This document shows positions 1 to 25,400 of a stretch of DNA of 64,000 nucleotides, piece after piece (the stretch's first letter is position 1; every line of letters begins with the position of its first letter). This DNA comes from Planctomycetota bacterium. Lineage in GTDB: Bacteria; Planctomycetota; Planctomycetia; Pirellulales; PNKZ01. The notes under the pieces were generated by a model. The model did not search any database. It was not told where the DNA came from and worked only from the letters and a program-made list of their open reading frames with translations. The stretch is from positions 35,558-99,557 of the forward strand of contig JAFEBQ010000004.1 in NCBI GenBank assembly GCA_018242585.1, in the 5' to 3' direction. Made by a program: the position numbers and the translations under genes.

Positions 1-1
1 G

Positions 2-1096
2 CCGTGGGAGTTCAAGCCGCGCGGCCAGTGCGGCACGATGGTCAGCGATCTGTTCCCCCACGTGGCCGAGTGCGTCGACGAGATGGCCATCGTGCGGTCG
101 ATGGTCTCGAACTTTTCGGAGCACACCGCCGCGAATTACTTCATGCACTCGGGCTCCGGTCTGCAAGGGCGGCCCAGCATGGGAGCCTGGGTCACCTACG
201 GCCTGGGGAGCGAGTGCCAGAACTTGCCCGGCTTTGTCGTACTCGATTGCGCGCAGATTCCCCCCGGCGGCGCCGATCTGTTCAACAGCGGCTTTCTGCC
301 GGCCAGCTATCAGGGTTCGTTCTTCCACGCCAACGCGCACCCGGTTGCGGACCTGAAGCGCGACGAGACAAGCGACGACTTGCAGCGGCGCAAGCTGGCC
401 CTGGCCGCGCGGATGAATCGTAATCTACTCTCCGCCACCGGGCACAATGATGAGGTCGAAGCGGCGCTGGCCAACTACGAGTTGGCTTTCAAAATGCAAA
501 CCACCGTGCCCGAGCTGGTCGACCTCGGCGGCGAAAGCGAGGCCACGCACAAGCTATACGGGCTGGACGAAAAAGAGACCGAGCAATTCGGGCGGCAATG
601 CCTGATGGCGCGGCGGCTGGTCGAGCGCGGCGTCCGGTTCATCGAGCTGCTACCTCCGCGGATCAACGGCGACCGCTGGGACCAGCACGGCAAATTGCGC
701 GACGGACACGAGCAAAACGCCCGCCAGACCGACAAGCCCGTCGCGGCCTTGCTCAAGGATCTGAAGTCTCGCGGCCTGCTGGACAGCACGCTGGTAATCT
801 GGGGTGGCGAGTTCGGCCGCACGCCGATGGCCCAGGGGAGCGACGGGCGCGATCACAACCCGTTCGGCTTCACCATGTGGCTGGCCGGCGGCGGGATCAA
901 GGGAGGAACGGTCTACGGCGCGACCGACGACTATGGCTATTACGCGGTCGAGAACAAGGTCGAGGTCCACGATCTGCACGCCACGATGCTCCACTTGCTG
1001 GGGCTCGACCACAAGCGAAGCACGTACCGCTTTGGCGGCCGCGACATGCGCCTGACCGACGTGCATGGGGAAGTAGTGAAAGGGATTTTGGCATAA
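2..1096 (+). CDS. DUF1501 domain-containing protein (sulfatase-fold family), 5' end cut by window edge
   Basis: Frame is open from nt 2 (PWEFKPRGQCGTMVSDLFPHV...). It is collinear with the C-terminal ~365 aa of the complete paralog at 4737..6179. Shared blocks: SDLFP, SMG.W.TYGLGSE, NLPGFV, FGRQCL.ARR, WGGEFGRTP, HDLHAT.LH, RLTDV.GEVVK. Stop TAA at 1094-1096. Confidence 0.9.
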   Translation, partial: PWEFKPRGQCGTMVSDLFPHVAECVDEMAIVRSMVSNFSEHTAANYFMHSGSGLQGRPSMGAWVTYGLGSECQNLPGFVVLDCAQIPPGGADLFNSGFLPASYQGSFFHANAHPVADLKRDETSDDLQRRKLALAARMNRNLLSATGHNDEVEAALANYELAFKMQTTVPELVDLGGESEATHKLYGLDEKETEQFGRQCLMARRLVERGVRFIELLPPRINGDRWDQHGKLRDGHEQNARQTDKPVAALLKDLKSRGLLDSTLVIWGGEFGRTPMAQGSDGRDHNPFGFTMWLAGGGIKGGTVYGATDDYGYYAVENKVEVHDLHATMLHLLGLDHKRSTYRFGGRDMRLTDVHGEVVKGILA

Positions 1097-1147
1097 CCGG
1101 AATGTTTGTATTGATCTGCCCGAGTTTCCGCCCGCTACAATTCCCGC

Positions 1148-1315
1148 ATGGACACGTTCATTCTCAAATGCCGGAAGTGCGGTCTGACCTTGATCGGCAG
1201 CACCAAAGAGCCACGCACCGGCCAGCTCAAGCCGCAGCCCTGGCTGTGCGCCGAGTGCGCGAAAAAAAAGCCAGGGACCGAGGCCGCGAAGATGCTGTCG
1301 AAACAGAAGCAGTAG
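1148..1315 (+). CDS. small zinc-ribbon-like protein (55 aa), not in ORF track
   Basis: ATG at 1148, TAG at 1313-1315. Product: MDTFILKCRKCGLTLIGSTKEPRTGQLKPQPWLCAECAKKKPGTEAAKMLSKQKQ. It has two CxxC pairs (C8/C11, C34/C37) and a Lys-rich tail. Codon third positions are mostly G/C, as in neighbouring genes. A perfect 23-bp inverted repeat starts 5 nt after the stop. Confidence 0.45.
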   Translation: MDTFILKCRKCGLTLIGSTKEPRTGQLKPQPWLCAECAKKKPGTEAAKMLSKQKQ

Positions 1316-1319
1316 TACC

Positions 1320-1384
1320 CGTAGGTCAGGCCTTGGCCTGACGAATGGTGGCCACAACCATGTCAGGCCAAGGCCTGACCTACG
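1320..1384. terminator. perfect 23-bp inverted repeat (hairpin), probable terminator / REP-like palindrome
   Basis: CGTAGGTCAGGCCTTGGCCTGAC (1320-1342) and its exact reverse complement GTCAGGCCAAGGCCTGACCTACG (1362-1384) are separated by 19 nt containing GTGGCCAC. There is no T-tract, so a terminator role is only inferred from position. Confidence 0.5.
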
Positions 1385-1413
1385 AAACTGACCTCAAATG
1401 AAAAGACCATAGC

Positions 1414-1499
1414 GGGTGCCATGCTCAAGTCAGCAGACTTGAGCATGCGAATCGCCACAACGACATGCTCAAGCCTTGGGGGCCTTGAGCATGGCACCC
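1414..1499. repeat. nested palindromic repeat cluster (ATGCTCAAG / CTTGAGCAT arms)
   Basis: Local hairpins ATGCTCAAGT(1421-1430)/ACTTGAGCAT(1437-1446) and ATGCTCAAG(1465-1473)/CTTGAGCAT(1484-1492) are enclosed by GGGTGCCATGCTCAAG(1414-1429)/CTTGAGCATGGCACCC(1484-1499). A further GC hairpin follows: CCCCCGGCG(1529-1537)/CGCCGGGGG(1541-1549). Confidence 0.55.
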
Positions 1500-1763
1500 G
1501 TTCTGATGGATGGCGCACCGTTGTTCGGCCCCCGGCGGCTCGCCGGGGGCTAAAGTCTCGATGCGACGATTGGCGTAACGTCCTTGGCCAAACGCAATTC
1601 CCGAGCCCCTAATCCCTCGCCCCTAGCCCCTCCTCTCCCCCCCGCCTTAACCTCAATCGCGTTGCAATCTTGGGGCTCCTCGGATAGGCTGTTGAGTGGC
1701 GTCGGGCACCGGCCCGGCGCTCCCGCCCCACTCGGCTTCTATCCCGTCAAACCTGGCCCGCCG

Positions 1764-4679
1764 ATGATGGATCGTCCCTGGCGATTCACCGCTGTCGTTC
1801 TTGGCCTGTTGCTCTCGGCGCTGGCGCTACGCGCCGATGATCCTGAGAAACGTGATCCGAAGCCTAGCGACCCCGCAAAGCATGACGCCGAAGGGCTCGC
1901 CTTCTTCGAGCAGAAGATTCGCCCGGCGCTGGTCACCCACTGTTACGAGTGCCATTCGGCCCAGAGCAAGACGCCCAAGGGGGGCCTGCTGCTCGATAGT
2001 CGCCAAGGGTTGCTGACCGGCGGCGACTCGGGCCCCGCGCTGGTGGTGGGCAAGCCGGCCGAAAGCCTGCTGCTTCAGGCGATCAAGTACGAAGGGATCG
2101 ACATGCCGCCGAAGGCCAAGCTGCCGGCCGAGGTGGTGGCCAACTTCGAACGTTGGATCGCGATGGGGGCTCCCGACCCGCGCGAAGGCAAGGCGCTGAC
2201 CCGCGGACAAATCGACATTGAAGCCGGCCGCAAGTTCTGGTCGTTCCAACCGCCCCAACGTCGCCCCGCGCCGACGGTGCAACAAGCCGACTGGCCGCGC
2301 GGCGAGGTCGATCGCTACATCCTCACCCGACTGGAACAAGCCAAGCTGAAGCCAGTGGCCGACGCCTCGCGCCGGGCGCTGATTCGCCGGCTGTCGTTCG
2401 ATCTGATCGGGCTGCCGCCGACGCCGGCCGAGATCGAAGCCTTTGAACAAGACAAGTCCCCCGACGCGGTCGAACGGCTGGTCGATCGATTGCTGGCGTC
2501 GCCGCAATTTGGCGAACGCTGGGCCCGGCACTGGCTCGACGTGGTCCGCTACGGCGAGTCGCTGACGCTGCGTGGGTTCATTTTGCCCGGCGCTTGGCGG
2601 TACCGCGATTACGTCATTCGGGCCTTCAACGAAGATCGGCCCTACCATCAGTTTGTGCTGGAACAGATCGCCGGCGACCTGCTGCCCGCCAACGATGTCG
2701 ATACGAAGCAGCGGCAACGGGTGGCGGTGTCGTTCCTAGCCTTGGGGAACACCAACCTCGAAGAGCAAAACAAGAAGCAGTTGCGGATGGACGTGGTCGA
2801 CGAGCAGCTCGACACCATCGGCAAGGTCTTCCTGGGCCAGACGCTGGGCTGTGCCCGGTGTCACGATCACAAGTTCGACCCGATTCCGACCCGCGATTAC
2901 TACGCGCTGGCCGGCATTTTGCGCAGCACGCGGACCCTGCACCACGCCAACGTGTCGAAGTGGCTCGAAACGGCCGTGCCGCTGCCGCCGGACCAATCGG
3001 CGCAGTACGACAAGGCCGACGCCGAGATCAACGCCTTTGAGTCGAAGCTGCAAGCGGCGCGCAACAATCTGACCTCCATGATCGCCGTTCACGATGAACA
3101 GGCTTCGCCCAATGACAAGCCCGAGGCGCTTCCGGTCGGGGACTTGCCGGGCGTGGTGGTCGACGATGCGCAAGCCAAGGCGGTGGGCCAGTGGGTTCAG
3201 TCGACCCACTATCGCCGCTTCGTCGGCAGTGGCTACTTGCACGATGGCAACAAGGACAAGGGCAAGAAAACACTCACGTTCGTCCCCGACATCACCAAGG
3301 CCGGAAAGTACGAAGTGCGCCTGGCGTACACGTCGGACCCGAACCGCGCCACGTCGGTCCCGGTGACCATTTTCTGCGCCGACGGCGAAACGACCGTCCG
3401 CGTCAACATGCGCCAGGCCCCTGACCTGGACGGCCGCTTCGTCTCGCTGGGCACCTACCAATTCGAATCGAACGGCCAAGGTTTCGTCATCATCTCGAAC
3501 GAGGGGACCGACGGGTATGTCTGTCCCGACGCGGTGCAGTTCGTGCCGTTCCAGTCGACCGACAACTTGATGAAGCTGGTCAAGACCAAGTTCTCCGACA
3601 ATTCGCCCGAGGACGTTCGCCAGGCGAGCGACCGGTTGCAGTCGATGGAAAAGGAAATGACCAAGCTCCGCAAGGACGCCCCCAAGCGTCCCACGGTGCT
3701 GACGGTCGAGGAAGAGTTCCAGCCCGAGAACGCCCGGATTCACGCCCGTGGCAACGTGGCCACGCTGGGCGATGAAGTGCCTCGCGGGTTTCTGCAAGTG
3801 GCCATGTCCGAGCCGGCAACGGAATTGCCCAGCGACGAAAGCGGCCGCCGGCAGTTGGGCGAGTGGCTGGCCAGCGCCAAAAATCCCCTGACGGCGCGCG
3901 TGATGGTCAACCGGGTTTGGCACTGGCTGTTCGGCGCTGGCCTGGTGCGGACGACTGACAATTTCGGCGCTGCGGGCGAGTTGCCGTCGCACCCTGAACT
4001 GCTCGACTACCTGGCGACGCGTTTTGTCGACGAGGGCTGGTCGATCAAGAAGCTGGTCCGTGAGTTGGTCCTGTCGCACACGTACCAGTTGGCGACGACG
4101 ACGGACAAAGCCGCCTTGGCCGCCGATCCCGAGAACCGGCTGCTGTGGCGGTCGAATCGGCGGCGACTCGACGGCGAGTGCCTGCGCGACGCGATGTTGC
4201 TGGTTAGCGGCCAATTGGACGCGAGCCCCGGCGAATCGCAAATCCCGGCCAGCGCCTCGTCGGACTATGGACTCAAGCTCGAGAACAATCGCCGCAGCAT
4301 CTATCAGCCCATTCTGCGTAACGCCCTGCCCGAGGTGCTCGAAGTGTTTGACCTGGCCGATTCGAGTTCGGTCACCGGCAAGCGAAACGTCAGCACGGTC
4401 GCGCCGCAGGCGCTCTTGATGATGAATCATCCGTTCGTGCTGGCCCAAGCCGAGCACGCGGCCAAGCTGCTGCTGAAAGAACCGGATCGCTCGCGCTCGG
4501 AACGGGTAACGATGATCTTCCAACGGGCGCTGGGCCGCGAGCCGACGCCGCGCGAGTTGGAGTTCAGCGAGAAGTTCGTCGGCCGCTTGCTCGACGAGCA
4601 AAAGGTCGCGCCCGAGGAAGCCTGGAGTCAGGTTTACCAGGCCGTGTTTTCGACGATCGATTTCCGCTATACCGATTGA
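1764..4679 (+). CDS. PSCyt1/PSCyt2(DUF1549)/PSD1(DUF1553) family protein with an inserted CBM-like domain
   Basis: Start moved to ATG 1764 (MMDRPWRFTAVVLGLLLSALALRADD signal peptide). The 60 codons upstream in the track ORF are Pro/Ser-rich and lie in a repeat-rich spacer. Motifs: CYECHSAQSKTPKGGLLLD (planctomycete cytochrome c, PSCyt1); DRYILTRLEQAKLKP...LIRRLSFDLIGLPPTPAEIEAF (DUF1549); CARCHDHKFDPI..DYYALAGIL; C-terminal DUF1553-like NRVWHWLFGAGLVRTTDNFG. Confidence 0.9.
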   Translation: MMDRPWRFTAVVLGLLLSALALRADDPEKRDPKPSDPAKHDAEGLAFFEQKIRPALVTHCYECHSAQSKTPKGGLLLDSRQGLLTGGDSGPALVVGKPAESLLLQAIKYEGIDMPPKAKLPAEVVANFERWIAMGAPDPREGKALTRGQIDIEAGRKFWSFQPPQRRPAPTVQQADWPRGEVDRYILTRLEQAKLKPVADASRRALIRRLSFDLIGLPPTPAEIEAFEQDKSPDAVERLVDRLLASPQFGERWARHWLDVVRYGESLTLRGFILPGAWRYRDYVIRAFNEDRPYHQFVLEQIAGDLLPANDVDTKQRQRVAVSFLALGNTNLEEQNKKQLRMDVVDEQLDTIGKVFLGQTLGCARCHDHKFDPIPTRDYYALAGILRSTRTLHHANVSKWLETAVPLPPDQSAQYDKADAEINAFESKLQAARNNLTSMIAVHDEQASPNDKPEALPVGDLPGVVVDDAQAKAVGQWVQSTHYRRFVGSGYLHDGNKDKGKKTLTFVPDITKAGKYEVRLAYTSDPNRATSVPVTIFCADGETTVRVNMRQAPDLDGRFVSLGTYQFESNGQGFVIISNEGTDGYVCPDAVQFVPFQSTDNLMKLVKTKFSDNSPEDVRQASDRLQSMEKEMTKLRKDAPKRPTVLTVEEEFQPENARIHARGNVATLGDEVPRGFLQVAMSEPATELPSDESGRRQLGEWLASAKNPLTARVMVNRVWHWLFGAGLVRTTDNFGAAGELPSHPELLDYLATRFVDEGWSIKKLVRELVLSHTYQLATTTDKAALAADPENRLLWRSNRRRLDGECLRDAMLLVSGQLDASPGESQIPASASSDYGLKLENNRRSIYQPILRNALPEVLEVFDLADSSSVTGKRNVSTVAPQALLMMNHPFVLAQAEHAAKLLLKEPDRSRSERVTMIFQRALGREPTPRELEFSEKFVGRLLDEQKVAPEEAWSQVYQAVFSTIDFRYTD

Positions 4680-10115: not shown

Positions 10116-10775
10116 TTATTCTTGCAAGTCTCCCAATTCAGCCCGCAGCCGGTGCAACACCCGGGACTTGGCCACGCGAACGGCGCCGGCGCTCATACCC
10201 AAGTCGGCGGCGACGTCTTTGGCGGCGCGCCCTTCGACCGTGGTCTGCCAAAAGGCCTGCCAGGTGCGGGGTTCGAACTCGCCGCGGATCAGCTCGAGCC
10301 CGCGCTGGAAGAGTTGCCGCTCGGCGGTCACATCGTCGGTCGATGGCGTGCTTGAGGACGATGCTTCCCCCGCCGACAAGTCAGCCTGGGCCTCGTCGAC
10401 CAATTGTGCCATTCGTTCGAGCGCCTCGCTGCCCCCAGCGCCGCGAGGTTCGCGCGATTGTTTGCGGAAAAAGTCGTGAATCTTGTTCGAGGTGATCGTC
10501 CGCAGCCAGCCGCGGAAGGTGTCGGATTGCCGGTCGATGCGCAAGGTGGCGACGTGCGACGCCACGGCCTGGAACACGTCCTGCATCACGTCGGCGATGT
10601 CAGCCTCCGACAGCCGCCACCGCCGGCACCAGTGGGCCACCAGCGGCGCATAGAGCGCCACCAGCCGGTCCCAAGCGCCGGCCTCGTCGGTGCGCAACCG
10701 CTCGACCAGGCTGCGTGAAGCGCCGCTCGACGACCAGGAAGCGCGGCTATGACCGATCTCGACGACGTCGTTCAT
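10116..10775 (-). CDS. ECF-type RNA polymerase sigma-70 family factor
   Basis: Region 2-like: LYAPLVAHWCRRWRLSEADIADVMQDVFQAV...FRGWLRTITSNKIHDFFRK. Region 4 HTH: AAKDVAADLGMSAGAVRVAKSRVLHRLRAEL. It lies 40 nt upstream of, and is co-oriented with, the kinase gene. Confidence 0.9.
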   Translation of the reverse strand: MNDVVEIGHSRASWSSSGASRSLVERLRTDEAGAWDRLVALYAPLVAHWCRRWRLSEADIADVMQDVFQAVASHVATLRIDRQSDTFRGWLRTITSNKIHDFFRKQSREPRGAGGSEALERMAQLVDEAQADLSAGEASSSSTPSTDDVTAERQLFQRGLELIRGEFEPRTWQAFWQTTVEGRAAKDVAADLGMSAGAVRVAKSRVLHRLRAELGDLQE

Positions 10776-14209: not shown

Positions 14210-15565
14210 TCAGGAGTGGGGCTCGTCAATGCTCCATTCCTTGAGCCGGCGTTGCAGCGTGCGAACCGAGATGCCCAGCGTCTCGGCCGTGCGCGAGCGG
14301 TTACCGCTGAACTTTTCCAGCGTCTGGAGAATGGCGGACTTCTCCATGTCGATCAGCGTGGCGTCGTCGGGCAGCGTCCCCAAGCCGGGAGTTGTCGAAA
14401 AGCTCGGCGGCAAGTGCTGTAGCGACAGTTCATCCCCCTCTTGCAGCACGAGCATGCATTCCAGGCAATTGCGCAGCTGCCGGACGTTGCCAGGCCACTC
14501 GTAGCTCTCGAGAAACGTCCGCAGTTCGGGGCTCAGGGCCGGGCGCGGCCGGCGAATGCGCTCGGTCAGGTCGGTGAGGATATGCTCGGCGATCGGCACG
14601 ATGTCCTCGCGATGACTGCGCAGCGGCGGCAACATGATCGTGATCACCTGCAAGCGATAGTACAGGTCTTCGCGGAAGCGCCCCTCGTGCATGAGCGCCG
14701 TCAGGTCTCGACTCGTGGCGGCCACCACGCGCACCTCGACCGAGCGTGGCTCGTTGCCGCCCACGGGCGTGATCATTCGAGTTTCCAAGGCGCGCAGCAG
14801 CTTGGCCTGGGAACTGAGCGGAAAGTCACCGATTTCATCGATGAACAACGTGCCACCGTGGGCCTGGGCAAATCGCCCCTGCCGGTCGACCGTCGCCCCC
14901 GTGAACGAGCCGCGGACATGGCCGAACAACTCACTTTCGACGAGCGACTCGGGAATGGCCGCCATGTTGACGACGACAAACGGCTGATCGTGCCGCGCGC
15001 CTTGCGCGTGAATTCCCTCGGCCACCAACTCCTTGCCGGTTCCTGACTCGCCTTGAATCGTGACGGTGCTGTCTGACTTGGCGGCGCGGGCGATCTGCTC
15101 GCGAACGCGGTCCAGGGCCGGCGAAGTGCCCACCAATTGCCCCGACGGCTTGAACCGTCGGGACGCGGAACGCAGCCGCGGCGTCGGCGGCGGCTGCTTT
15201 TCCTCGTTGCAATAGCTCTCGGCCAGCTTCAGCAACTGGCGCGGGTCGACCGGCTTGGTCAGATAGTCGCGCGCCCCGAGCTTCATGGCGTTGACCGCCG
15301 ACTGCACATCGCCGTAGGCAGTCACCATGATGAACGGCGTGCCTGGCTTGCGCGCCATCCACAGATTGAGCAAATCGACGCCACTTTTTGTGCCCAGGCA
15401 AAGATCGCTCACCACCAGGTCGACCGGACGGTTAATGGTCTCGAGAGCCTCGTCGGGATTGCGCGCGGTCAGGACTTCGTAGCCTTCGATCCGCAGCATC
15501 CGCGATAGGGCTTGCCGCTCGTTGGCGTTGTCTTCCACCACCAGTATGGAATGTTGATTGGCCAC
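14210..15565 (-). CDS. sigma-54-dependent response regulator (NtrC-family enhancer-binding protein)
   Basis: REC: ILVVEDNANERQAL...DLVVSDLCL...MVTAYG...ARDYLTKP. AAA+ sigma-54 activation domain: TIQGESGTGKELVAEGIH, ESELFGHVRGSFTGA, GGTLFIDEIGD, RVVAATSRDL, REDLYYRL. C-terminal Fis-type HTH: RSRTAETLGISVRTLQRRLKEW. Confidence 0.93.
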   Translation of the reverse strand: MANQHSILVVEDNANERQALSRMLRIEGYEVLTARNPDEALETINRPVDLVVSDLCLGTKSGVDLLNLWMARKPGTPFIMVTAYGDVQSAVNAMKLGARDYLTKPVDPRQLLKLAESYCNEEKQPPPTPRLRSASRRFKPSGQLVGTSPALDRVREQIARAAKSDSTVTIQGESGTGKELVAEGIHAQGARHDQPFVVVNMAAIPESLVESELFGHVRGSFTGATVDRQGRFAQAHGGTLFIDEIGDFPLSSQAKLLRALETRMITPVGGNEPRSVEVRVVAATSRDLTALMHEGRFREDLYYRLQVITIMLPPLRSHREDIVPIAEHILTDLTERIRRPRPALSPELRTFLESYEWPGNVRQLRNCLECMLVLQEGDELSLQHLPPSFSTTPGLGTLPDDATLIDMEKSAILQTLEKFSGNRSRTAETLGISVRTLQRRLKEWSIDEPHS

Positions 15566-15580
15566 GATCAGGGTTTCCTG

Positions 15581-17083
15581 TTAGCAGATGGAAATCAGCA
15601 TCGGCACGCTCAGCAATTGAGTGGCTGCGGCCAGCGTCGCCGGACTGACCTGCAGCGGATCGCTGACTTGCTTGGCGTTGGTCGGCAAGTTCACGCAAAA
15701 CTCGGCGCCACCTTCGGCGCTATCTTGGCAATGGATCGTCCCCCACGCTTCCTCGACAAAGCGGCGGACCAGGGCCAATCCCAACCCGGTCCCCAGGTGC
15801 TTGGTCGAGAAGAACGGCTCGAAGATCGCCTCGCGCAACTCCTCCGGCACACCCGGTCCTGTGTCCGAAACCTGGAGTTTCAACGTCTCGCCGTCGGTGG
15901 CGACCGAGATCCGCACTTGCCCGTGCGGCCCAACGGCCTCGGCCGCGTTGGTCAACAGATTGAGCATCACTTGCCGCAAGCGGGTGCGATCGATGAAAGC
16001 CAGCGCAGGCTCGGTGGGCAACGTCGCCGCCAGCTTGATCTCGTCCCGATCCAGCAACGGCCCCATGAAGGTCAACAGCGAACGGACCTCGACGCCAACG
16101 TCAACCAGTTCGGCCCGGGCTTCCTCGGGCTTGGCATATTCCAGTAGCGTGCGGAGCATGCCCTCGACGCGCCCGATTTCTTCGATCGTCTCGGTGACAA
16201 TCTCGGTGGGTTGTGATTCACGAGCGGCATGAGCCAACCATGCCCGTTCGATCACGTGCAGGTTAATGCGGACGGCATTCAGCGGATTGCGGATTTCGTG
16301 CGCGATGCCGCCGGCCACCTGCCCCAACTCGGCCAACTGTTTGACACGGCCAACGGCCAGCGCGGTCTGTAGATCGGAAACACGCTTGGCGATCGAAATC
16401 GCCGAGTAACAAGCCAGGCCCACCACCACGACAATGAGCAACGTGGTCACGATCCAGCGCTGTCGCGTGGTGGCCATCACCTGGGTCAACCGGCGCTCGA
16501 ACCATTCGGTATTCAGCCCCGAGTGATACGTCGCAATCTGTTTGCTTCCCACCAGAACCGGAATTGACAGATCATAGGCGGTGATTCCACCGGTCAATTC
16601 TGGGGAACTGGTCTCGACCACATCCTCGCCGGCGTCGGGCATCTGACGCTGATACCAATTGTGGGCCAGCGCGCCCCCTTCGAGCGACTTGGTGCTGTGC
16701 TTGAGCACCTGCCCCGTCTGGTCAACCACCGCCGCGTAGAGATGCGAATCGTCGGTTGGCAACGTCCGATCCCAATGGCGTCGCAGCCATTCGGCGTCGG
16801 CCTTGTCGAGTCCCTCTTGCGGCGAGGTGATGTGCTGAAATTCGTCCTGAATGCGCATGGTCGTGCGAATGGCGTGCGAGCGCAGCCGATTCACCTCGAC
16901 CTGCAACAGCCCGTTGCGAGTTTCCTTGAAGTCGAGCGTCATGCTCCAGAAAGCGATTCCCGCGATCCCCACCACGCACAGCCCAAAGGCCAGGAACAAC
17001 AATGCCAAATTGCCGCGCAGCATCGCCCGAGAGACTTGCTTGACGCGACCAATGGCTCGAGGCGGGTTCATCAGGTATTCCAC
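15581..17083 (-). CDS. sensor histidine kinase (two TM segments, periplasmic sensor domain)
   Basis: TM1 LALLFLAFGLCVVGIAGIAFW, TM2 WIVTTLLIVVVVGLACYSAI. H-box GGIAHEIRNPLNAV. N/G boxes LLTNAAEAV, DTGPGVP, GTGLGLALV. It lies 15 nt upstream of, and is co-oriented with, the NtrC-family gene. Confidence 0.9.
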   Translation of the reverse strand: MEYLMNPPRAIGRVKQVSRAMLRGNLALLFLAFGLCVVGIAGIAFWSMTLDFKETRNGLLQVEVNRLRSHAIRTTMRIQDEFQHITSPQEGLDKADAEWLRRHWDRTLPTDDSHLYAAVVDQTGQVLKHSTKSLEGGALAHNWYQRQMPDAGEDVVETSSPELTGGITAYDLSIPVLVGSKQIATYHSGLNTEWFERRLTQVMATTRQRWIVTTLLIVVVVGLACYSAISIAKRVSDLQTALAVGRVKQLAELGQVAGGIAHEIRNPLNAVRINLHVIERAWLAHAARESQPTEIVTETIEEIGRVEGMLRTLLEYAKPEEARAELVDVGVEVRSLLTFMGPLLDRDEIKLAATLPTEPALAFIDRTRLRQVMLNLLTNAAEAVGPHGQVRISVATDGETLKLQVSDTGPGVPEELREAIFEPFFSTKHLGTGLGLALVRRFVEEAWGTIHCQDSAEGGAEFCVNLPTNAKQVSDPLQVSPATLAAATQLLSVPMLISIC

Positions 17084-17471
17084 TCAACGAAAGATCGAGA
17101 TAATGCGGCGACGCCAAGCGCGACCACACGCTCCGTCGTGTCACCCCCAAAAGCAATCGGTGCGCCAAAACGTCGCCACGTGGCGAAAGTATGGCCAGTT
17201 AGTCGCTTACGAGATTATTTGCACCATGCCACTAATGAGCAATGCGACAATTTGCCGCCCTCCCCAAATGGCGGAAGACAAATTGTCGCACGCCGCGCGC
17301 GGTCATTGAAATGGGTTTCTAACCCTGTCCGCGCTGGTTCGCGGGGCAACGCCGGTGGCGAATCGATCACGCTCCACGATTCAGGCGCGACGAAACGCAT
17401 ACCCGTGGCACGGCTTAGAAGCCCCGATTCAAAAACCGGGGTTGATGTGAAAAGCGCCGGCGTGTTGAGTG

Positions 17472-17672
17472 CTAGCCACGCGCTACTTCGCGCAGAGATT
17501 CTTCGGCCTCGTGCAACTTTTCGAGCATCTGGCACAGTTCGGTGACGTTGTCCTCGTCGGCTGCGGTCGGCGCGGCGTCGGCGGTCGACGGCTGTTGCCA
17601 GTGGGCGACCTGCTCGCGAATGGTTTCGACCTGTTCTTCTAGCTGCACGATGTCGCGTGATGGGCTCATCAT
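17472..17672 (-). CDS. small acidic coiled-coil protein (66 aa), hypothetical
   Basis: MMSPSRDIVQLEEQVETIREQVAHWQQ...LCQMLEKLHEAEESLREVARG. Codon usage resembles neighbouring genes. AAGGGA lies 5-10 nt upstream of the ATG. Confidence 0.5.
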   Translation of the reverse strand: MMSPSRDIVQLEEQVETIREQVAHWQQPSTADAAPTAADEDNVTELCQMLEKLHEAEESLREVARG

Positions 17673-18116
17673 TGATTCCCTTTGCAGTAGGCTACTGCAA
17701 CATTATCGCTCTTGGCCAAACATGGCAACGATCAATCTCCTGACAAAACCGATGCCGTGATTGTTTGCCTTCAGTTGATCCATTACGGCTCATCACGCGC
17801 CACGATGGGGATGCAGAATACTCAAGCGACGCACGCGAGCGAGATTTGCACAAGCTGGGAAAACCACCGACGATTCACAGCGCCACAACTCACCCGGCAG
17901 TCTATCAGCAATGGCTCGTCTGCATGGTGTCGCGAAATGGATACAGTGCGAGACGATTTCAGTCTTAGTTTGCTTCGATAGCTCGCGTCGTCGAACTCAG
18001 AACGTGAGTTGGTCGCGATCAACCTGATTGCCATCCTGTCATATTTCCCTCGCTTTCTTGGCGATTCTTGCCAACTTCCCTGATGTGGATTGGTTTTCTC
18101 TCCATTCACCACGACT

Positions 18117-18131
18117 TGGCACACCGTTTGC
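18117..18131 (+). promoter_or_regulatory. candidate sigma-54 (-24/-12) promoter
   Basis: TGGCAC(18117-18122)-accgt-TTGC(18128-18131) is an exact match to TGGCAC-N5-TTGC. It is intergenic, 86 nt upstream of and oriented toward the ORF at 18217. Confidence 0.55.
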
Positions 18132-18216
18132 GTTTATCTGGCCACAAGCTCGGTACGAGTCTGGCACAAACAACAATCCACCCCAGTTCAGGTTCCGACC
18201 GCGAAAGGATGCCACC

Positions 18217-18414
18217 ATGGTCAGCCATAACCACGACAGCCGATTGAATCAGCCGTGCCACTTGTCGATTCGGGAAATCCATCACCGCGCCGACCTGATC
18301 CGCGATCAATGGGACTCGCACGAATTGCAGGTGCGCCACGAACGGGCCTTGGAAGCGCAGGCTCGCTTGATACGGATGGCCATCTCGCTCGACGAATCGG
18401 CTTGCGGGCGCTAA
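18217..18414 (+). CDS. small His-rich hypothetical protein (65 aa)
   Basis: MVSHNHDSRLNQPCHLSIREIHHRADLIRDQWDSHELQVRHERALEAQARLIRMAISLDESACGR. GAAAGGA lies upstream of the ATG. Third positions are G/C-rich. It is preceded by the -24/-12 candidate. Confidence 0.45.
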   Translation: MVSHNHDSRLNQPCHLSIREIHHRADLIRDQWDSHELQVRHERALEAQARLIRMAISLDESACGR

Positions 18415-18728: not shown

Positions 18729-19073
18729 TTAGCTGCGCCGGCCCAGCCATTGGGTAATCAGCAGCTTGGCGACTTCAACCATCGGTGGCAGCGCGAGCGT
18801 CAGCCACGAGGGAATCGGCGCCGGCGCGGCCTCTCCTTTGGTGGGCCGACTTCGTCGCGTGGTGAACACCATTCGGCCGACCGCAAAGCCGACCAGGCCA
18901 GCGCCGGCGGTCGAGAGCCACGGATGCTGGCCGACGATACGGCGCGGCTCCAGATCATCACCAACGCGCGCGACGATTTCGCCACGGCGACGGCGGATAC
19001 CGGCCTCGGCCAGGGCCAGTTCGCCGGCCAGCGGATCACGCTGGTTCGCTGATGTCGCGGCCAAATTGCTCAC
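18729..19073 (-). CDS. small membrane protein, YqjK-like position (GTG start)
   Basis: Coiled N-terminus, then HPWLSTAGAGLVGFAVGRMVF. It follows DUF883 and holin-family genes, as in the enterobacterial yqjD-yqjE-yqjK arrangement. The assignment rests on context and architecture only. Confidence 0.5.
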   Translation of the reverse strand: MSNLAATSANQRDPLAGELALAEAGIRRRRGEIVARVGDDLEPRRIVGQHPWLSTAGAGLVGFAVGRMVFTTRRSRPTKGEAAPAPIPSWLTLALPPMVEVAKLLITQWLGRRS

Positions 19074-19488
19074 GCTGTTGTTCCCGACGATGCTCGTATT
19101 TTTTGCGCAATTGCGCCCGCCACGCGGCCCTCATTCGCCAGACCACCCCCCCGCCCAGCGTCACCGTGGCCAACAACACCCCCGCGCCGACGCCCACACA
19201 CCCCAGCCAAAGCCGGCCACCGAGCGCCTCGCCCAGCAGCACCGCCGCTCCGATCAACAGCAGCGCCGTGGCCACCATCAACGCGGCAACGACCATCGAC
19301 AGGGCCAAGATCCCGGCGACCCCCAGGATGGCCGCACGGTGCGCGCGATCGCGCCACTGATCGAGGCGAACCGACAGATAGTACCAGACGTACTCGGCCA
19401 ACTCTTGCCCAAGCTGCGCATACGTCGCGTCGGCGTCCGCCTCTGGCGCGGGCGGTTGTTCCGGATCGTCGTGAACCTGGGCGATCAT
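19036..19488 (-). CDS. phage-holin-superfamily-III-like membrane protein (YqjE-like)
   Basis: Two long TM segments (AAILGVAGILALSMVVAALMVATALLLIGAAVLLG; LWLGCVGVGAGVLLATVTLGGGVVW) are followed by the basic tail RAQLRKKYEHRREQQREQ. It lies directly downstream of a DUF883 gene. Confidence 0.65.
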   Translation of the reverse strand: MIAQVHDDPEQPPAPEADADATYAQLGQELAEYVWYYLSVRLDQWRDRAHRAAILGVAGILALSMVVAALMVATALLLIGAAVLLGEALGGRLWLGCVGVGAGVLLATVTLGGGVVWRMRAAWRAQLRKKYEHRREQQREQFGRDISEPA

Positions 19489-19552
19489 GGCGAGTTACTT
19501 TCGGCAGCACCTGCGCACCGCGCCACCATCCCTTGGCACGGTAACGCGAAGA

Positions 19553-19852
19553 TCAGCGACGCGTCCAAATGGCTCCCAATACAAAACCGATTCCCGCCGC
19601 CGTCAGCACCGCGCGGATCGGATGTTCGGTCAAGCACTGCTCGATCGATTGCTCGACCCCGCGGATCTTGGCACGCTGTTCTTCGCGGCACGTCTCGGCT
19701 TCCTGGCGCAAGTCACTGACTTTTTCCCGCGCCGCCGCCTTGGCCGCTTCGGCCAGAGCCTTGATATCTCGTTCCAAATCGGCCAACCGCTGGCGCAGCT
19801 CTGCGGCGGCGCGATGCGTTTGATCCGCTGAGCTGGTGTCACCCGTCGACAT
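19553..19852 (-). CDS. DUF883 family (ElaB/YqjD-like) membrane-anchored protein
   Basis: A helical, charged N-terminal ~70 aa is followed by EHPIRAVLTAAGIGFVLGAIWTRR. This matches the family C-terminal anchor pattern (ENPW..vgiaAgiG.vlG.ll.RR). Confidence 0.8.
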   Translation of the reverse strand: MSTGDTSSADQTHRAAAELRQRLADLERDIKALAEAAKAAAREKVSDLRQEAETCREEQRAKIRGVEQSIEQCLTEHPIRAVLTAAGIGFVLGAIWTRR

Positions 19853-19886
19853 GATCCGACTCTCCTCCGTTCAGGTTCCGAAACGA

Positions 19887-20123
19887 TCAAGGCTGCGGAG
19901 GTTGTCGCGCCTGGTGCTTTTCGATATATGACCGGGCGCGGTCATGATCGATGGCGCGGACCAGCAGCTTGATCTTCATCATTCCCAATCCGACCAGGCC
20001 AGCCTGCGATTCGCCGTCCACTTCGCACTTGATTCCCTCGCCGTGCAAAGCGCCGCGCAACAGCTCGGCTTCGGTCGCGTCGGACGTGGAAAACACCTCT
20101 ACTAAATCGTCACTTTGAAGCAT
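19887..20123 (-). CDS. DUF2007 domain protein (putative signal-transducing, PII-like fold)
   Basis: The 78-aa product LVEVFSTSDATEAELLRGALHGEGIKCEVDGE...IKLLVRAIDHDRARSYIE fits the typical DUF2007 pattern. Confidence 0.7.
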   Translation of the reverse strand: MLQSDDLVEVFSTSDATEAELLRGALHGEGIKCEVDGESQAGLVGLGMMKIKLLVRAIDHDRARSYIEKHQARQPPQP

Positions 20124-20879
20124 GATTCAAGCCTTCCGTTGTTGCAACCGCCTGGAACCGCTCGCGATTCTCCGGCAATCGTCCTTATATCGCAGCATTC
20201 CCGGGCGGAGGCAATCACCTGGGGGCAAATTTCGTCAGACAGGTTGACCTCGTGTTGACCAATGCTCATGCGACAAATCCGCACGATCCGCCACGCTTAA
20301 GAATGGCCAACCAGCAACGCCGACGTTTTTCCGATGGATACGAAGCCCGTCGGTTACCACCGCGATGGGCGAAGCCGTCGATTTGACGCACACGTTGCTG
20401 GCGCGCTAATTGCCCACGAAGCGAAGGTGGCGTCCGTCAGAATCGGACAAGGCGTTGTCGTGCGCGAATTGTCGATTGCCATGAGCATGGTTGTGGTTGA
20501 AATGGCCAACGAAGAGGCCGGACGACACGGTATCCAGGCGACGATGGCCCATTTGCAATTGAGATCCCTGTTGTGAGTCGTCAAGAAGACGGCGCTCGCG
20601 TCCTTGGCAATGAAGCATCGCGCTGGCGGCGCTGATCGGCGACCCGACGACCAACCACGCCGCGCGACGACCGGCAGGAGCCAATGTGTCAGTGACACAG
20701 ATCATCACGGGGACGGTCTGTCACCGGGAAGCGGCAATGGCGCGCGACGAGTGGAAGCCGACGGAACTCGACTAGCTGTTCATCAACACAGCGGCTGAGT
20801 TGAATGCGGCGTCAGCCCACGACCTTCCAGCGCCGTTTAGCATGAAACCTGACGTCGCAACTCGCCAGGGATCGCCGCA

Positions 20880-21287
20880 CTATCGCGAAACGGCCGTCGT
20901 GTCGCCGATCGAGCTGACCGCGTGGACAAGCGACAGAATCGCCGCGCGAACCGAGTCGGGAACCTTGGGCCAAGCCTCTTCGACGAACTGCAAGTCTGGC
21001 TCGTGTCGCGGGTGGTTGTCCGCGCGGTCGTCCGGGTGGTGAATGCCATACTGCGCCGCGGCCAGAATCAGCTCGCGCCGCGAGCGGGCTTTGGTCTTTT
21101 GGCGAATGCGGTGGACAAATACGTTCACCGTGCCAGCCGCTACTCCGATCGTGTCCGCGATTTCCTTGTGGCTATAGCCTTGAACCAGGTACGTCAGGAC
21201 GGACATCTCGCGCTGGCTCAATTCGGGCCAAGCGTGCGGGGATGCTAACACTTTGGTTTCGTTCAGTTCGTGTTCCACGATCGACAT
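20880..21287 (-). CDS. LuxR/GerE-type HTH transcriptional regulator (135 aa)
   Basis: Start placed at ATG 21287 (MSIVEHEL...). HTH: LSQREMSVLTYLVQGYSHKEIADTIGVAAGTVNVFVHRIRQKT. The upstream 91 codons of track ORF 20880..21560 are Cys/Arg/Phe-rich and look non-coding. It is divergent from the giant gene. Confidence 0.75.
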   Translation of the reverse strand: MSIVEHELNETKVLASPHAWPELSQREMSVLTYLVQGYSHKEIADTIGVAAGTVNVFVHRIRQKTKARSRRELILAAAQYGIHHPDDRADNHPRHEPDLQFVEEAWPKVPDSVRAAILSLVHAVSSIGDTTAVSR

Positions 21288-22041
21288 AACTGCGGACTCC
21301 CATCCTGAAATACACCGTCGCCATCCTCGTCGGTCGCCATTCTCAGTTTGGCTGTCGACGGACAACTCCTCGCGGCCGCGCGTCGTAGCGCGGCATCGAA
21401 AAAGGTTAACTTTGTCTGTGTATTGAACGCTGCCTGCGCGTTGGACGCAGGATCGACACCAGCCGACGTAAAGCAAATGGCGTACCCTGGCACGACAAAC
21501 GAGCCCCACCGATGAGGGGAAAACCAGAAAATCGCCGAGAAACACGACAAATAATCGCAAGAAAATAATTTACGTTCTCCGTTGCAAGGGGGGGTGCGCG
21601 GAGCGTCATTACGCCAGCGCGTCGCCGAATCCATGCACTACCCGCCATTCTGTCGTATTTGACAACCACAACACGCATGATTGCGCCGCGCGGCGCCGCG
21701 GACAGCTTGAACGGCGGCTCTCGATGCTCGCAACAGCCTCAAGAAAGTGCTTGGCGCAGCGGTCCGATTTGCTCGTGACGATGAGCGCCGCCGCACATCA
21801 TTCATACTGGCGAGGCAGCAACTTCTTTTGCTTTAACGCAACCCGCGCAATCAATCATTAACGACAGACTGTCGCGAAAGCTTTACAAAACACGCGACTG
21901 CCTGTCGGGGGGCACGACACCCCACCAAGCGTCTTACGCCACTCTTCTTCAAAAAATGCGCGCGCAAAACATTAACGATTCCCGTCATTTTAGCATTTTT
22001 TCTTTACACGCGCGGCGTTCGCTCGCGCGTGGCATGCCTGC

Positions 22042-22056
22042 TGGCATATTTTTTGC
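22042..22056 (+). promoter_or_regulatory. candidate sigma-54 (-24/-12) promoter upstream of the giant gene
   Basis: TGGCAT(22042-22047)-atttt-TTGC(22053-22056), with correct GG/GC spacing. It is on the + strand, 355 nt upstream of ATG 22411. Confidence 0.5.
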
Positions 22057-22410
22057 CTTCTACCTAGTCGCGCGGGCTGTGCGTTGATAACGCGGCTGTT
22101 TTGAAAGCGCTGGCTCGGGAGATGCCAGTCGCATTCGGTACGGCTGTGTGCGACGGCAATTCGCAACGGCATGTCTCAGGGCTGACGCGTGCCACCTGCA
22201 CGGGGCAGTGTATCCGTTTGATTGAGATGCCCGCGAAGGGGGTGCCTTCGTGGGAGTGCGTTGTGCGCTCGGCTTCGGATCGAATTTGGTTGCAAATTTC
22301 GACGGCCTTTCTGGCCAAATCCTGAGACGACCTGTGGTGCGGCGAAGGTTTCCTTCGAACCGGCGGTTGTGCTGCGCCCAGAGTCTCGTTGCTTGACAAG
22401 GTAGGCGGTT

Positions 22411-22497
22411 ATGTACGTAAAGGCTTCGCGCCGCTGGGCGGCCGCGTGGTTGCTGCTCCTTTCGTTTTGCTCGGGGTTCGCGCCGCGCTTGCAGGCC
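22411..22497 (+). other. predicted Sec signal peptide of the giant protein
   Basis: Basic n-region KASRR, hydrophobic core WAAAWLLLLSFCSGF, and LQA-A cleavage-type site. Confidence 0.6.
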
Positions 22498-25400
22498 GCC
22501 CCGCCAGCTAGCGATTCCGTTCCCAACCTCGGCCAGCCGCGAGGGGAAGCGCGTTCCCCGCTAGTCTGGGGCTGGGACCGGCAATCATTGCGACCGATGG
22601 CGCCACAGCCCGCGGCGCCCTTGGCCATTGCCGAGCGCGCCGATTACCGCTATGGCATCGAAGTCGGAGCGCTCGGCATCGCGCGCGAAGCAACTCCGCC
22701 GCCCGCGCGTCGAGCGGCCGATGAAGCCGGCGTATTGACCGAGTCGTTGCTGCCGCTGCGCAGTGGCACGCTCCGCTTCCAAAATGGGCTGTCGCCGATC
22801 TTCACACGCGCGCGGACGCTAACCATCCCGCTGCCCGCTCAATCGCGGCCAGTGCTGTACGTGCCCAATGCCGAAGAATTGCAACAACTGCAACAGCAGG
22901 TGGCGAAGCAACAGGTCAAAGTTGACGCGCTGCGACAAAAAGCCGCACAACGGCGCCAAGCCGAGTTGACGGCGCGCCGCGGCGGTGGCAACGGTTGGTT
23001 CAGCGTCGGCTTCTTCATGCTTGCCGCGCTGGGCGTCGTCGTCATGTGGTGCTGGCTGGCTCGGAGCGCTCGTGTCGGCGGCCCAGCACCGGTCGGCGCA
23101 ATCGAAACCGACCAACTCGATGACGTCTGGGACGAGGAAGCGTTCTTTGAAGAATCGGCTGCGGCCGGTCAGTTCGCGGCTTTGGCCTTGGAGCTCAAGC
23201 GGGCCTTCCTCACCGGACAAGCGCGGATCGACGCCTGGCTCGAACGAGGTGGATTGTTGCGTTGGTGGGACGCGCTGATCGCCGCCTGCGGTTCCATGGC
23301 TCGCGACGCGGTGGATTTGGCGACCGGCACTCGATCAACGCGCCGTCAGATCGCGCGGCGCGTCGGCCACCACGCGCTGGTTTACTGGTGCGTCATCATG
23401 TCGGTGCTCATCGGCCTGCCCCAATCATCACGCGCCGGGACGTTTTACTGGGATCCAAATCAGAACGTGAACAACAGCAATCCCTACAGCCTGGCCACGC
23501 AGATCGGGCTGGGTGGGGCTGGCACGTGGGACAACTTGACCACGATGTGGTGGGATGGCTCGAGTGTTACCGACACCACTTGGAACAACGCCGGCAACGA
23601 CGTGGCGGTGTTCGGCGGGCTGGTCGGCGGGGCCGTCAACTTGCAGGCCGCGGGAATCACCGTCGGCGGCGTGACGTTCAACACCACGGGCTATACGGTC
23701 GGCAGCGCCAACACCCTGACCCTGGGGGGAACGACGGCCACGTTGACGGCCAACGCCAGCGCCACCATTTCGTCGATCCTGGCCGGTTCGGCGAACATGG
23801 TGAAGAACGGCGGTGGCACCTTGACCATCACGGGCGCTTCGACCGGCTTTACCGGCGGCACGACGATCACGGCTGGAACACTGCTGCTCAAACAAGTGAG
23901 CCTGGGCCCCACGGGCACGCCGACGACCATCACCCTGAACAACGGCGGCGTTCTGAACACGTTCGACGCGGCGGCGTTTACGTACACCAACTTGATCAAC
24001 GTCCAAGGGGCGGCCACGATCACCAATGGCGGAAACGTCCCCACCACGATCAGCGGCGGGCTGAACGTGGCCAATTCGCTCTTCACGATTGCTGGCTTTA
24101 GCACCTATACGTTCTCGGGCGCGACGACGCTGGCTGGGCCGATCACGACGTTGAATGTCGGCAACACGGTCTTCCTCTCGGGCAACGTCACCGGCGCGGT
24201 GCTCAACAAGACGGGCGGCGGCCCCTTGGTGCTAAACGGCGGCGCGGGGGTCAACGACAGTTGGTCGTTCACGCCGACGTTCCCCTCGGGCGGCTCGAAC
24301 CCGATGGCCGTGACCAATATCCTGCAAGGCCGCTTGTTATTTCAGGGGGCCAATTCGCAATTACAAGCGGGGACCGTCCTGGTCAATGCCGGCGGTGAAC
24401 TGGAAGTCAGTACTGGCGCGAATCTGAATGCGGGCACGAATATCGTGCTGGCTTCGAGTCTGAATGGCATGGGCGCCCTCGGCTTGAACTCGGCGGTGGA
24501 CATGAGCGCGACGCCGATCGCCAATTTTCAGAACGCGATCGTGGGCGTGTACGGCGGCGCGTTTCAGATCAATAGCTCGACCTATACCTTCCCCATCGAT
24601 CTGTCCAACTTCCTCTGGTCGACCGGGGCTTCGAGCAGCCCGATCTATCTCGGCTCGGCGGCGGGCGGCACGTTAACGGGCACCTTGTCCCCCGACCCGA
24701 CCGGCGCCTATCGCTTGGGTGGGAATCTGTTGAACAACACGCTGACCGTGTCGGGCAACAACACATTTACCAACGCCACGGCCCCGTTGATCATCGGCTC
24801 GCCGATCGGCAACGTGTCAGGCTACAACACCTCGACCGGCGCCACGGTCATCAGCGGCAACAACGCCGGCTACAGCGGCACGGTGACCGTCAACGGCCGC
24901 AGCCAACTGAACCTGGCCGGCACGACCAATCAGAACCCCATCGGCACCGGCGTGATCGATTTGCTCGGCCTGAGCACGTTGAACATCAACGGCAAGTACG
25001 TGGGCACCAGCCCGATGCTGGGTAACACCACCGTCAATGCCTATGCCGGCAGCACGATCCAGTTGAACAACACGGCGTTCACCACCGCCAACACGAACGT
25101 CCGCTTCGATCCGTCAACCGTGCTGAACATGTACGGTTCGACGCTGAATTTCACCGTCTCGTACACGGGTGCCTTGACCACTTCGGCCCAGCAGTTCGCG
25201 ACCTTGAACATGTCGGGCGCGGTCAGCCTTCAGGCCAGCACCACTACCACCAGCGGCACCGGCACGTTGACCTTCTCGGCCTTGAACCGTAACGACAACG
25301 CCACCTTGGCATTCCTGGCGTCGACGACGTCGTACGCCATCATCGGCCGCGCGACCAGCACTGGCAGCGTGCAAATCTTCGCCCCCAATCTCAACGGCAC

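Follow-up and report, generated by a model that had tools for sequence, protein, structure and literature searches.

Giant genes of about 30 kb are a hallmark of the Planctomycetes, and to our knowledge almost nothing is known of how they are switched on. We addressed this question for one such gene, which lies in a 64,000-nucleotide stretch of contig JAFEBQ010000004.1 from a Planctomycetota bacterium (GenBank assembly GCA_018242585.1; this whole stretch, with a GC content of 63.5%, is called the window). Its open reading frame (ORF) of 10,142 codons is separated from a divergent gene of the LuxR/GerE type by 1,123 bp of non-coding DNA. An initial annotation of the window had proposed that this intergenic region contains a sigma-54-type promoter and that a bacterial enhancer-binding protein (bEBP) encoded nearby binds two 13-mers upstream of it. 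Our analysis supports that reading, given that the palindrome concerned is found in 11 of 11 relatives and is the best-scoring site at the loci excluded from matrix training, and that its copy before the giant gene ranks first in the window. Thus, the region is probably a bEBP-dependent sigma-54 promoter region for a giant PEP-CTERM gene, with the bEBP encoded at 14210-15565 as its activator.

The two 13-mers, CGACAGACTGTCG and CGACTGCCTGTCG, are present where the initial annotation had placed them, at 21862-21874 and 21895-21907, and their starts are 33 bp apart, which would place them on the same face of the helix. CGACAGACTGTCG is the perfect palindrome it had been said to be, with 6-bp arms that are complementary about a central A. 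An inverted repeat GTCGCG..N16..CGCGAC had also been described at 21871-21898; this repeat is real, but it extends further than that, with arms of 15 nt each (21862-21876 and 21893-21907) that are 87% complementary across a 16-nt gap. A perfect 6-1-6 palindrome is unremarkable as such, and the feature that stands above chance is the identity of this palindrome, which matches a motif conserved in relatives. Downstream of the pair, TGGCAT-ATTTT-TTGC occupies 22042-22056 with GG at 22043-44, GC at 22055-56 and exactly 10 nt in between, confirming the motif and the exact -24/-12 spacing that had been reported. The centers of the palindromes are 142 and 175 nt from the GG of this element, TGGCATATTTTTTGCC, and thus within the range of ~80-300 bp upstream in which activator sites of sigma-54 promoters lie. 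By analogy with the known NtrC-type mechanism, the spacer between the palindromes and the -24/-12 element may serve as a looping region. The coordinates of these and the other features of the locus are collected in Table 1.

Table 1. Features of the giant-gene locus, with positions in the 64-kb window (+, plus strand; -, minus strand)
Feature	Position	Strand	Remarks
NtrC-family bEBP gene, proposed activator	14210..15565	-	REC, sigma-54 interaction AAA+ domain, HTH_8; GSFTGA loop
Cognate sensor histidine kinase gene	15581..17083	-	weak sCache-like match in N-terminal (presumed sensor) region
Sigma-54-like element TGGCGCACCGATTGCT	17152..17167	-	13.3 bits; ~70 nt upstream of kinase start
Putative second enhancer pair, CGACAATTTGCCG and AGACAAATTGTCG	17245..17288		31 bp apart; 160-205 nt upstream of kinase start codon
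Second -24/-12 match TTGGCACACCGTTTGCG	18117..18132	+	14.7 bits, top of window; low-GC non-coding stretch
LuxR/GerE-type regulator gene	20880..21287	-	divergent; probable start ATG 21287; borders the 1,123-bp intergenic region
Weaker -24/-12-like motif GGGTACGCCATTTGCT	21472..21487	-	11.6 bits, rank 10 in window; points at LuxR-type gene
Palindrome-like site CGACAAATAATCG	21545..21557		13.2 bits; 58-70 nt upstream of GGGTACGCCATTTGCT
Putative enhancer (upstream activating sequence) site 1, CGACAGACTGTCG	21862..21874		sole exact CGACA-N3-TGTCG in window
Putative enhancer (upstream activating sequence) site 2, CGACTGCCTGTCG	21895..21907		33 bp (~3 helical turns) from site 1
Enhancer-promoter spacer	21908..22041		GC 0.545 vs 0.635 for window; A/T tracts at 21951, 21966, 21988, 21996
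Sigma-54-type -24/-12 element TGGCATATTTTTTGCC	22042..22057	+	GG-N10-GC spacing
Predicted 5' leader, ~343 nt	22068..22410	+	structured; start of transcription predicted
Giant gene, 10,142 aa	22411..52839	+	autotransporter-associated beta-strand repeats (PATR); PEP-CTERM near C-terminus

Since the giant protein has no usable orthologue, the comparison with other genomes was made via the regulators. The genes for the bEBP and for a histidine kinase (HK) lie in tandem on the strand opposite to the giant ORF, 5.3 kb upstream of it (6.8 kb for the bEBP gene). Loci of relatives, L001-L015, were obtained from bEBP homologues (55-64% identity) and from an alignment of the kinase sensor domain (alignment A1), a metagenome scan with the sensor alignment contributing at least one locus, and they represent several distinct planctomycete metagenome-assembled genomes (MAGs) and metagenomes. 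Over the sensor domain, the L001 and window kinases share 49% identity, indicating that the two HK-bEBP pairs are orthologous. Gene neighborhoods of orthologous pairs vary widely among the relatives. The sequence CGACA-N3-TGTCG, however, precedes the HK-bEBP operon by ~95-330 nt (mostly ~100 nt) in 11 of 11 relatives, usually in two copies, compared with 1 of 11 in-gene control stretches. When all 5-mer palindromes with gaps of 0-8 were enumerated over the 350 nt that precede the kinase gene in these 11 relatives, this motif came out on top without bias toward any pattern, being present in every one of them, and the runners-up were shifted versions of the same motif. Likewise, a MAFFT alignment of nine kinase-upstream regions has few invariant columns, nearly all of them within CGACA-N3-TGTCG.

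We then scanned all 64 kb of the window with an enhancer matrix built from the relatives' sites only. The matrix ranks 21862-21874 first in the window, with 18.7 bits, and 21895-21907 seventh, with 13.3 bits; ranks 2 and 4 go to sites at 17276 and 17245, both upstream of the window's own kinase gene, which is where orthology predicts sites. Under a Markov null, the expected number of matches of at least 18.7 bits is 0.1 per 64 kb and 0.0013 per 850 nt (this intergenic region), and that of matches of at least 13.3 bits is ~0.003 per 100 nt. At each of the four loci that were not in the training set (L012-L015), the best matrix match within 11-21 kb of sequence lies upstream of the kinase gene. 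As for the promoter element, TGGCATATTTTTTGCC scores 14.2 bits on a rough sigma-54 position weight matrix and ranks third in the window; given the enhancer, the 150 nt that follow it are expected to contain 0.004 matches at least this good on the strand facing the gene. The joint expectation of sites of at least 18.7 and 13.3 bits within 50 nt of one another, followed by a 14.2-bit -24/-12 motif in the correct zone, is of the order of 1e-8 for this region. Because the expectations for the enhancer pair and, conditional on it, for the -24/-12 motif are this small, the whole arrangement is far beyond chance.

The same enhancer-to-promoter layout as in the window is present in several relatives. 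Between the kinase gene and a divergent gene for a 674-aa membrane protein, L001 and L006 have CGACAAACTGTCG-N8-CGTCAGACAGTCG and CGTCAAAGTGTCG-N8-CGTCAGGGAGTCG, respectively, which are nearly the 13-mers of the window. These pairs lie 119 and 140 nt upstream of the GG in a conserved (C/T)GGCACGTC(G/A)ATTGCC, which in turn lies ~80 nt before the start codon of the 674-aa gene. In a pairwise alignment of L001 with L006, conservation is seen in the palindromes, in the -24/-12 block and in a short leader element, but not in the spacer in between. L012, L013 and L015 have -24/-12-like motifs 100-300 nt from the palindrome pair, and TGGCATATTTTTTGCC shares the form YGGC-N7-TTGC with the enhancer-linked motifs of all five of these loci. 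The spacings between paired sites are 21, 21, 22, 30, 31, 32, 33, 43 (four loci), 81 and 82 bp, which are roughly whole helical turns, as expected of an activator that oligomerizes on one face of the DNA.

The protein that recognizes 21862-21907 is very probably the bEBP encoded at 14210-15565. The palindrome was assigned to it because the conserved site adjoins the only regulator genes that are conserved there, and autoregulation is the likely reason for its position beside them. With its receiver domain, sigma-54 interaction domain (Sigma54_activat, PF00158, 8.5e-68), Fis-type helix-turn-helix (HTH) and adjacent histidine kinase, the bEBP has the composition of an NtrC-family two-component activator. 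An NCBI entry from the MAG of a Planctomycetes bacterium matches it with 100% identity and is annotated as a sigma-54-dependent Fis-family regulator. Its activation loop reads GSFTGA in place of GAFTGA; GSFTGA is listed among the variants that keep activation, and two examples with assigned regulons are known from Desulfovibrio (PMC4641369). The residues RTLQRRLKEW in the C-terminal HTH region are identical in the window bEBP and in the relatives P0005, P0006 and P0008, which makes a shared DNA site plausible.

These elements suggest the following sequence of events. The membrane sensor kinase (15581-17083) would phosphorylate the NtrC-type activator, whose Fis-type HTH would bind the CGACA-N3-TGTCG sites at 21862-21874 and 21895-21907. 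The activator would then oligomerize, and the lower-GC spacer with its A/T tracts would loop, allowing the GSFTGA loop of the AAA+ ring to touch the closed complex of RNA polymerase and sigma-54 on TGGCAT-N5-TTGC. ATP hydrolysis would open the promoter, and transcription would begin near 22068 and pass through a structured leader of ~343 nt before reaching the 30.4-kb ORF. A leader of ~340 nt had been predicted by the initial annotation, in agreement with this start.

The operon that encodes the kinase and the activator appears to have a comparable arrangement of its own. The sites at 17245 and 17276 occupy a position equivalent to that of the conserved sites in relatives and lie within a 21-nt inverted repeat (17243-17263 and 17270-17290), 85 and 116 nt upstream of the -24/-12-like element TGGCGCACCGATTGCT. 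An analogous motif is found between the palindromes and the kinase gene in L013 and L015. The presence of the site pair together with a -24/-12-like motif before the kinase gene suggests positive autoregulation of the window's kinase-activator operon.

Several observations weigh against a bEBP-dependent sigma-54 promoter at the giant gene. TGGCATATTTTTTGCC has 3 mismatches over the 12 specified positions of TGGCAC-N5-TTGCW, one of them being C for A/T after its TTGC. The initial annotation had estimated that TGGCA[CT]N5TTGC should occur by chance ~0.24 times, which proved too optimistic: 0.60 occurrences are expected from dinucleotide-preserving shuffles, compared with 2 found, and 12 of 100 shuffles give at least 2. 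The extended consensus with up to 3 mismatches is not enriched (121 observed, 135 expected), and the sigma-54 matrix gives 3 matches that score at least as well as TGGCATATTTTTTGCC, compared with 1.2 expected. The -24/-12 motif taken alone is thus not above chance. In addition, rpoN is not in the 64-kb window, and the palindrome is assigned to the bEBP solely by co-localization. The training sites of the enhancer matrix were first spotted with a window-derived pattern, a circularity that is mitigated by the MAFFT alignment, the held-out loci and the unbiased enumeration. The leader of 343 nt is much longer than the 18-100 nt that separate the -12 element from the start codon where relatives have enhancer-linked motifs. 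The databases searched contained no orthologue of the giant gene, so direct phylogenetic footprinting of its promoter is impossible. L001 does possess a homologous giant gene (9,584 aa; 1-4269, minus strand), 4.4 kb from the orthologous HK-bEBP pair, whose product is 34% identical over 473 aa to the window protein, and this synteny speaks for a connection between regulators and giant gene; its AT-rich upstream region (4270-4602), however, contains no -24/-12 motif, and a sigma-70-like TTGCAA-N16-TATAGT was seen there by eye. In most relatives, the surroundings of the HK-bEBP pair lack a giant gene. Given the giant gene of L001 without a sigma-54 motif and the other relatives without a giant gene nearby, a general link between this regulatory system and giant genes is not established.

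The main rival explanation is that the palindromes are genuine bEBP sites that serve a different promoter, either that of the divergent LuxR-type gene, via GGGTACGCCATTTGCT, or an unrecognized sigma-70 or extracytoplasmic function (ECF) promoter of the giant gene at which they would act as an operator, the motif at 22042 being there by chance. We consider this unlikely. The enhancer does lie between two divergent genes, and the 11.6-bit GGGTACGCCATTTGCT on the minus strand faces the LuxR-type gene and is accompanied by a 13.2-bit palindrome-like site at 21545, but GGGTACGCCATTTGCT is only rank 10 and lies 375-420 nt from the strong sites, as opposed to 100-300 nt in relatives. The plus-strand motif is stronger and lies at 142 and 175 nt, which resembles the distances of 119 and 140 nt found in L001 and L006, and although its core alone is within chance, the plus-strand arrangement has a small joint chance. 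The window does contain an ECF-type sigma gene (10116-10775). Moreover, L003 and L007-L011 have a conserved GGGTTG...CACAAT between the palindromes and the kinase gene (alignment A2) that looks like a sigma-70-type -35/-10 pair and not like a -24/-12 motif, indicating that the palindromes are not always paired with a sigma-54 promoter; the kinase-activator operon seems to have different promoter types in different lineages while the same operator is kept. At the giant gene itself, though, a scan of 20700-22700 for sigma-70-like promoters found none.

Two further explanations appear highly improbable to us. One is that 22034-22056 represents a small hairpin (ATGCC-TGCT-GGCAT) that precedes a T-run and would terminate or attenuate some upstream transcript, or else a protein operator with TGGCAT repeated 12 bp apart. 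TGGCAT is indeed present at both 22030 and 22042, and a scan for terminator-like structures picks out a plus-strand ATGCCTGCTGGCAT and, after it, ATTTTTTGCC; yet the stem has only 5 bp with 3 G-C pairs, 7 such weak matches occur in 2 kb compared with 2.9 expected, the plus strand has no upstream gene or RNA family that would need a terminator, and the conserved upstream enhancer sites would go unexplained. The other, with equally little in its favor, is pure chance, by which a GC-rich genome has yielded short palindromes and GG-N10-GC matches in a functionless arrangement. By our rough estimate, about two dozen perfect 6-1-6 palindromes are to be expected per 64 kb, and the count of TGGCAY-N5-TTGC is not significant. 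Chance does not account for a palindrome that represents one specific motif, conserved beside orthologous regulator genes in all of the relatives and outscoring every other window site on a matrix built without window sequence, nor for an arrangement whose joint expectation is as low as that given above. As to the identity of the palindrome, a dispersed repeat of the repetitive extragenic palindrome (REP) type or a terminator was considered and rejected, because strong copies occur only in the two regulatory regions and are not followed by a T-run.

An activator-dependent sigma-54 promoter before a PEP-CTERM gene has a precedent. PEP-CTERM genes are mostly single-gene units behind long non-coding regions, and their upstream regions contain, in Proteobacteria only, an activator motif and a sigma-54 motif whose phyletic profile matches that of three proteins, namely PrsK (a kinase), PrsR (an NtrC-type regulator) and PrsT (a TPR protein) (Haft et al. 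2006, PMC1569441). The window resembles that system in having a stand-alone PEP-CTERM target behind a long non-coding region (here 1,123 bp), an activator site followed by a -24/-12 sigma-54 motif, and tandem genes for a transmembrane histidine kinase and a response regulator of the NtrC family with REC, AAA+ and Fis-type domains. It differs from it in several respects. The motifs described are proteobacterial (PMC1569441), whereas the window is from a planctomycete. The window bEBP scores 335.1 bits with TIGR02915 (PrsR), for which the cut-off is 502.6, and the window kinase scores 82.5 bits with TIGR02916 (PrsK), for which it is 300; both scores are well below the cut-offs, so the window pair is not PrsR/PrsK. 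No PrsT-like TPR gene was noticed near the pair, in a search that did not scan all window ORFs for one. The window has two copies of a 13-bp palindrome at 142-175 nt from the GG, whereas PrsR motif 1 is a 17-nt sequence that ends in TTTACA and has a mean spacer of 63 nt, and the leader is 343 nt long, compared with a mean of 71 nt in the PrsK/PrsR system. PrsR motif 1 lies 32-92 nt upstream of its sigma-54 motif, and the window does have a TTTACA at 22003-22008, 33 nt before TGGCAT; this hexamer is in a lower-GC stretch and is weak evidence of motif 1. Another TTTACA is present at 21882-21887, between the two palindromes.

The arrangement also resembles promoters of the NtrB/NtrC type, such as glnAp2, as judged from established knowledge of that family and from the domain, matrix and held-out-locus data for the window. 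Shared features are a two-component kinase with a REC-AAA+-HTH activator, dyad-symmetric sites in tandem that occupy one helical face ~100-180 bp upstream of GG-N10-GC, and a regulator operon with its own copy of the sites, which suggests autoregulation. On the other hand, CGACA-N3-TGTCG differs from the site recognized by NtrC, the activation loop reads GSFTGA and not GAFTGA, and the target is a giant surface protein instead of a nitrogen-assimilation gene. The window bEBP falls below all of the NCBIfam equivalog cut-offs tested, namely those for NtrC (396 bits vs a cut-off of 559), AtoC (377 vs 714), ZraR (362 vs 760) and LuxO. For the Planctomycetes themselves, a published report (PMC12316311) describes sigma-54 and many bEBPs, predicts sigma-54 promoters upstream of NtrC/ZraR-like (COG2204) genes in Planctomycetota, and, citing a study of Pirellula sp. 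strain 1, states that such predictions were helped by the proximity of bEBP genes. The passages of that report that were consulted mention neither a giant or PEP-CTERM gene nor a CGACA-N3-TGTCG enhancer. In the literature on CGACA or TGTCG together with sigma-54, these strings appear to be incidental, as judged by titles and abstracts.

An activator-gated promoter is an ordinary bacterial switch that operates by a textbook mechanism, and it is not mechanistically surprising. If the bEBP-dependent promoter is real, however, it provides a testable control circuit for one giant gene, consisting of a kinase, an activator, a 13-bp operator and a promoter, and it extends sigma-54 control of PEP-CTERM proteins, described in 2006, beyond the Proteobacteria by way of regulators that are not orthologous to PrsK/PrsR. 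CGACA-N3-TGTCG would then be the probable recognition motif of a two-component system that is present in every planctomycete relative examined, and it could be used to predict the regulon of this system in other genomes. More speculatively, and with a good deal less confidence, the HK-bEBP family of Pirellula-like and other planctomycete MAGs could be a non-orthologous counterpart of PrsK/PrsR that recognizes CGACA-N3-TGTCG and gates giant PEP-CTERM and envelope genes, with the leader as a second checkpoint; the latter may be a processivity, antitermination or riboregulatory element for completing a 30-kb transcript.

The predicted leader has a minimum free energy of -159.8 kcal/mol (z = -2.88), and 1 of 100 shuffled sequences folds as well. 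A second regulatory layer in it is no more than a possibility. Searches against Rfam gave no match for the whole window at gathering thresholds, and for 21250-22500 at E <=1 they gave only two chance matches to eukaryotic long non-coding RNAs. A 74-codon ORF within the leader (22101-22325) was considered as a gene and rejected: its matches are marginal, multi-stretch ones to long repetitive proteins, its codon periodicity is weak, and it has no small-protein homologue among 1.84 billion representatives. A direct repeat is found at the end of the leader, with GGCGGTTGTG at 22362-22371 and GGCGGTTATG at 22404-22413, 42 nt apart, the second copy overlapping the start codon.

The frame of 10,142 codons has no start codon before ATG 22411, which is preceded by the Shine-Dalgarno-like AAGGTAGG. 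From this codon on, the frame has GC periodicity of the coding type and a signal-peptide-like N-terminus. The PEP-CTERM domain (PF07589) scores 23.8 bits, compared with a cut-off of 20.7, and TIGR02595 gives no match to the protein at E <=0.001. The PEP-CTERM sequence itself, VPEPGSLSLAALAGLGLGAYGWRRRRR (in the region 52660-52839), is not at the end of the protein, as ~27 residues follow it. The N-terminal 340 aa have no relative in species genomes of the Genome Taxonomy Database (GTDB) and none among 5.8 billion proteins, and residues 341-1040 have a single match, a partial protein from Verrucomicrobia with 35% identity. Two L001 proteins, of 674 aa and 258 aa, were considered as relatives of the N-terminus and are not related to it. 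These first 340 aa (22411-23430) comprise the signal-peptide-like start, a glutamine-rich coiled-coil-like stretch and a hydrophobic segment, and a second signal-peptide-like segment, ALVYWCVIMSVLIGLPQSSRA, directly precedes the beta-strand repeats. They could represent an upstream ORF that has become fused or an extension of the N-terminus; the GC periodicity is in favor of coding over the entire stretch.

The initial annotation had reported two matches to TGGCA[CT]N5TTGC, both intergenic and correctly oriented. Both are indeed intergenic, but the second, at 18117, faces only a short unannotated ORF, so its orientation is to be taken as provisional. This ORF of 65 codons (18217-18414, plus strand, ATG 18217) begins 86 nt downstream of TTGGCACACCGTTTGCG; it has an AAGGA Shine-Dalgarno sequence and a coding-like GC content at third codon positions, with no Pfam match. 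No CGACA-N3-TGTCG site lies near this match, and a different inverted repeat, CGTCGAACTCA-N5-TGAGTTGGTCG, is present at 17989-18015.

Some further features of the relatives and of the window were observed. The leaders of the 674-aa genes (L001 8190-8270 and L006 1009-1095, minus strand) share the palindrome CCGGTGTCCGG in otherwise diverged sequence. Very good matches to TGGCACGCGAGTTGC lie inside the bEBP genes of L001 (11064-11079) and L006 (3858-3873) at the same codon positions. We rejected them as promoters, as they appear to be by-products of a conserved coding stretch that reads LAREL in our own frame reading, and they are a warning of false-positive sigma-54 predictions in GC-rich coding DNA. 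In the window, the gap between the kinase and LuxR-type genes is occupied by small genes on the minus strand (17472-17672 and 18729-20123). A 66-aa ORF on this strand lies immediately upstream of the kinase gene, and a three-gene minus-strand cluster in the gap includes a sub-threshold DUF883-like protein. A DUF2007 protein (5.9e-10) is also among these small genes, and the long plus-strand ORFs listed in the gap appear spurious. Elsewhere, the window codes for DUF1501, PSD1/PSCyt and sulfatase proteins.

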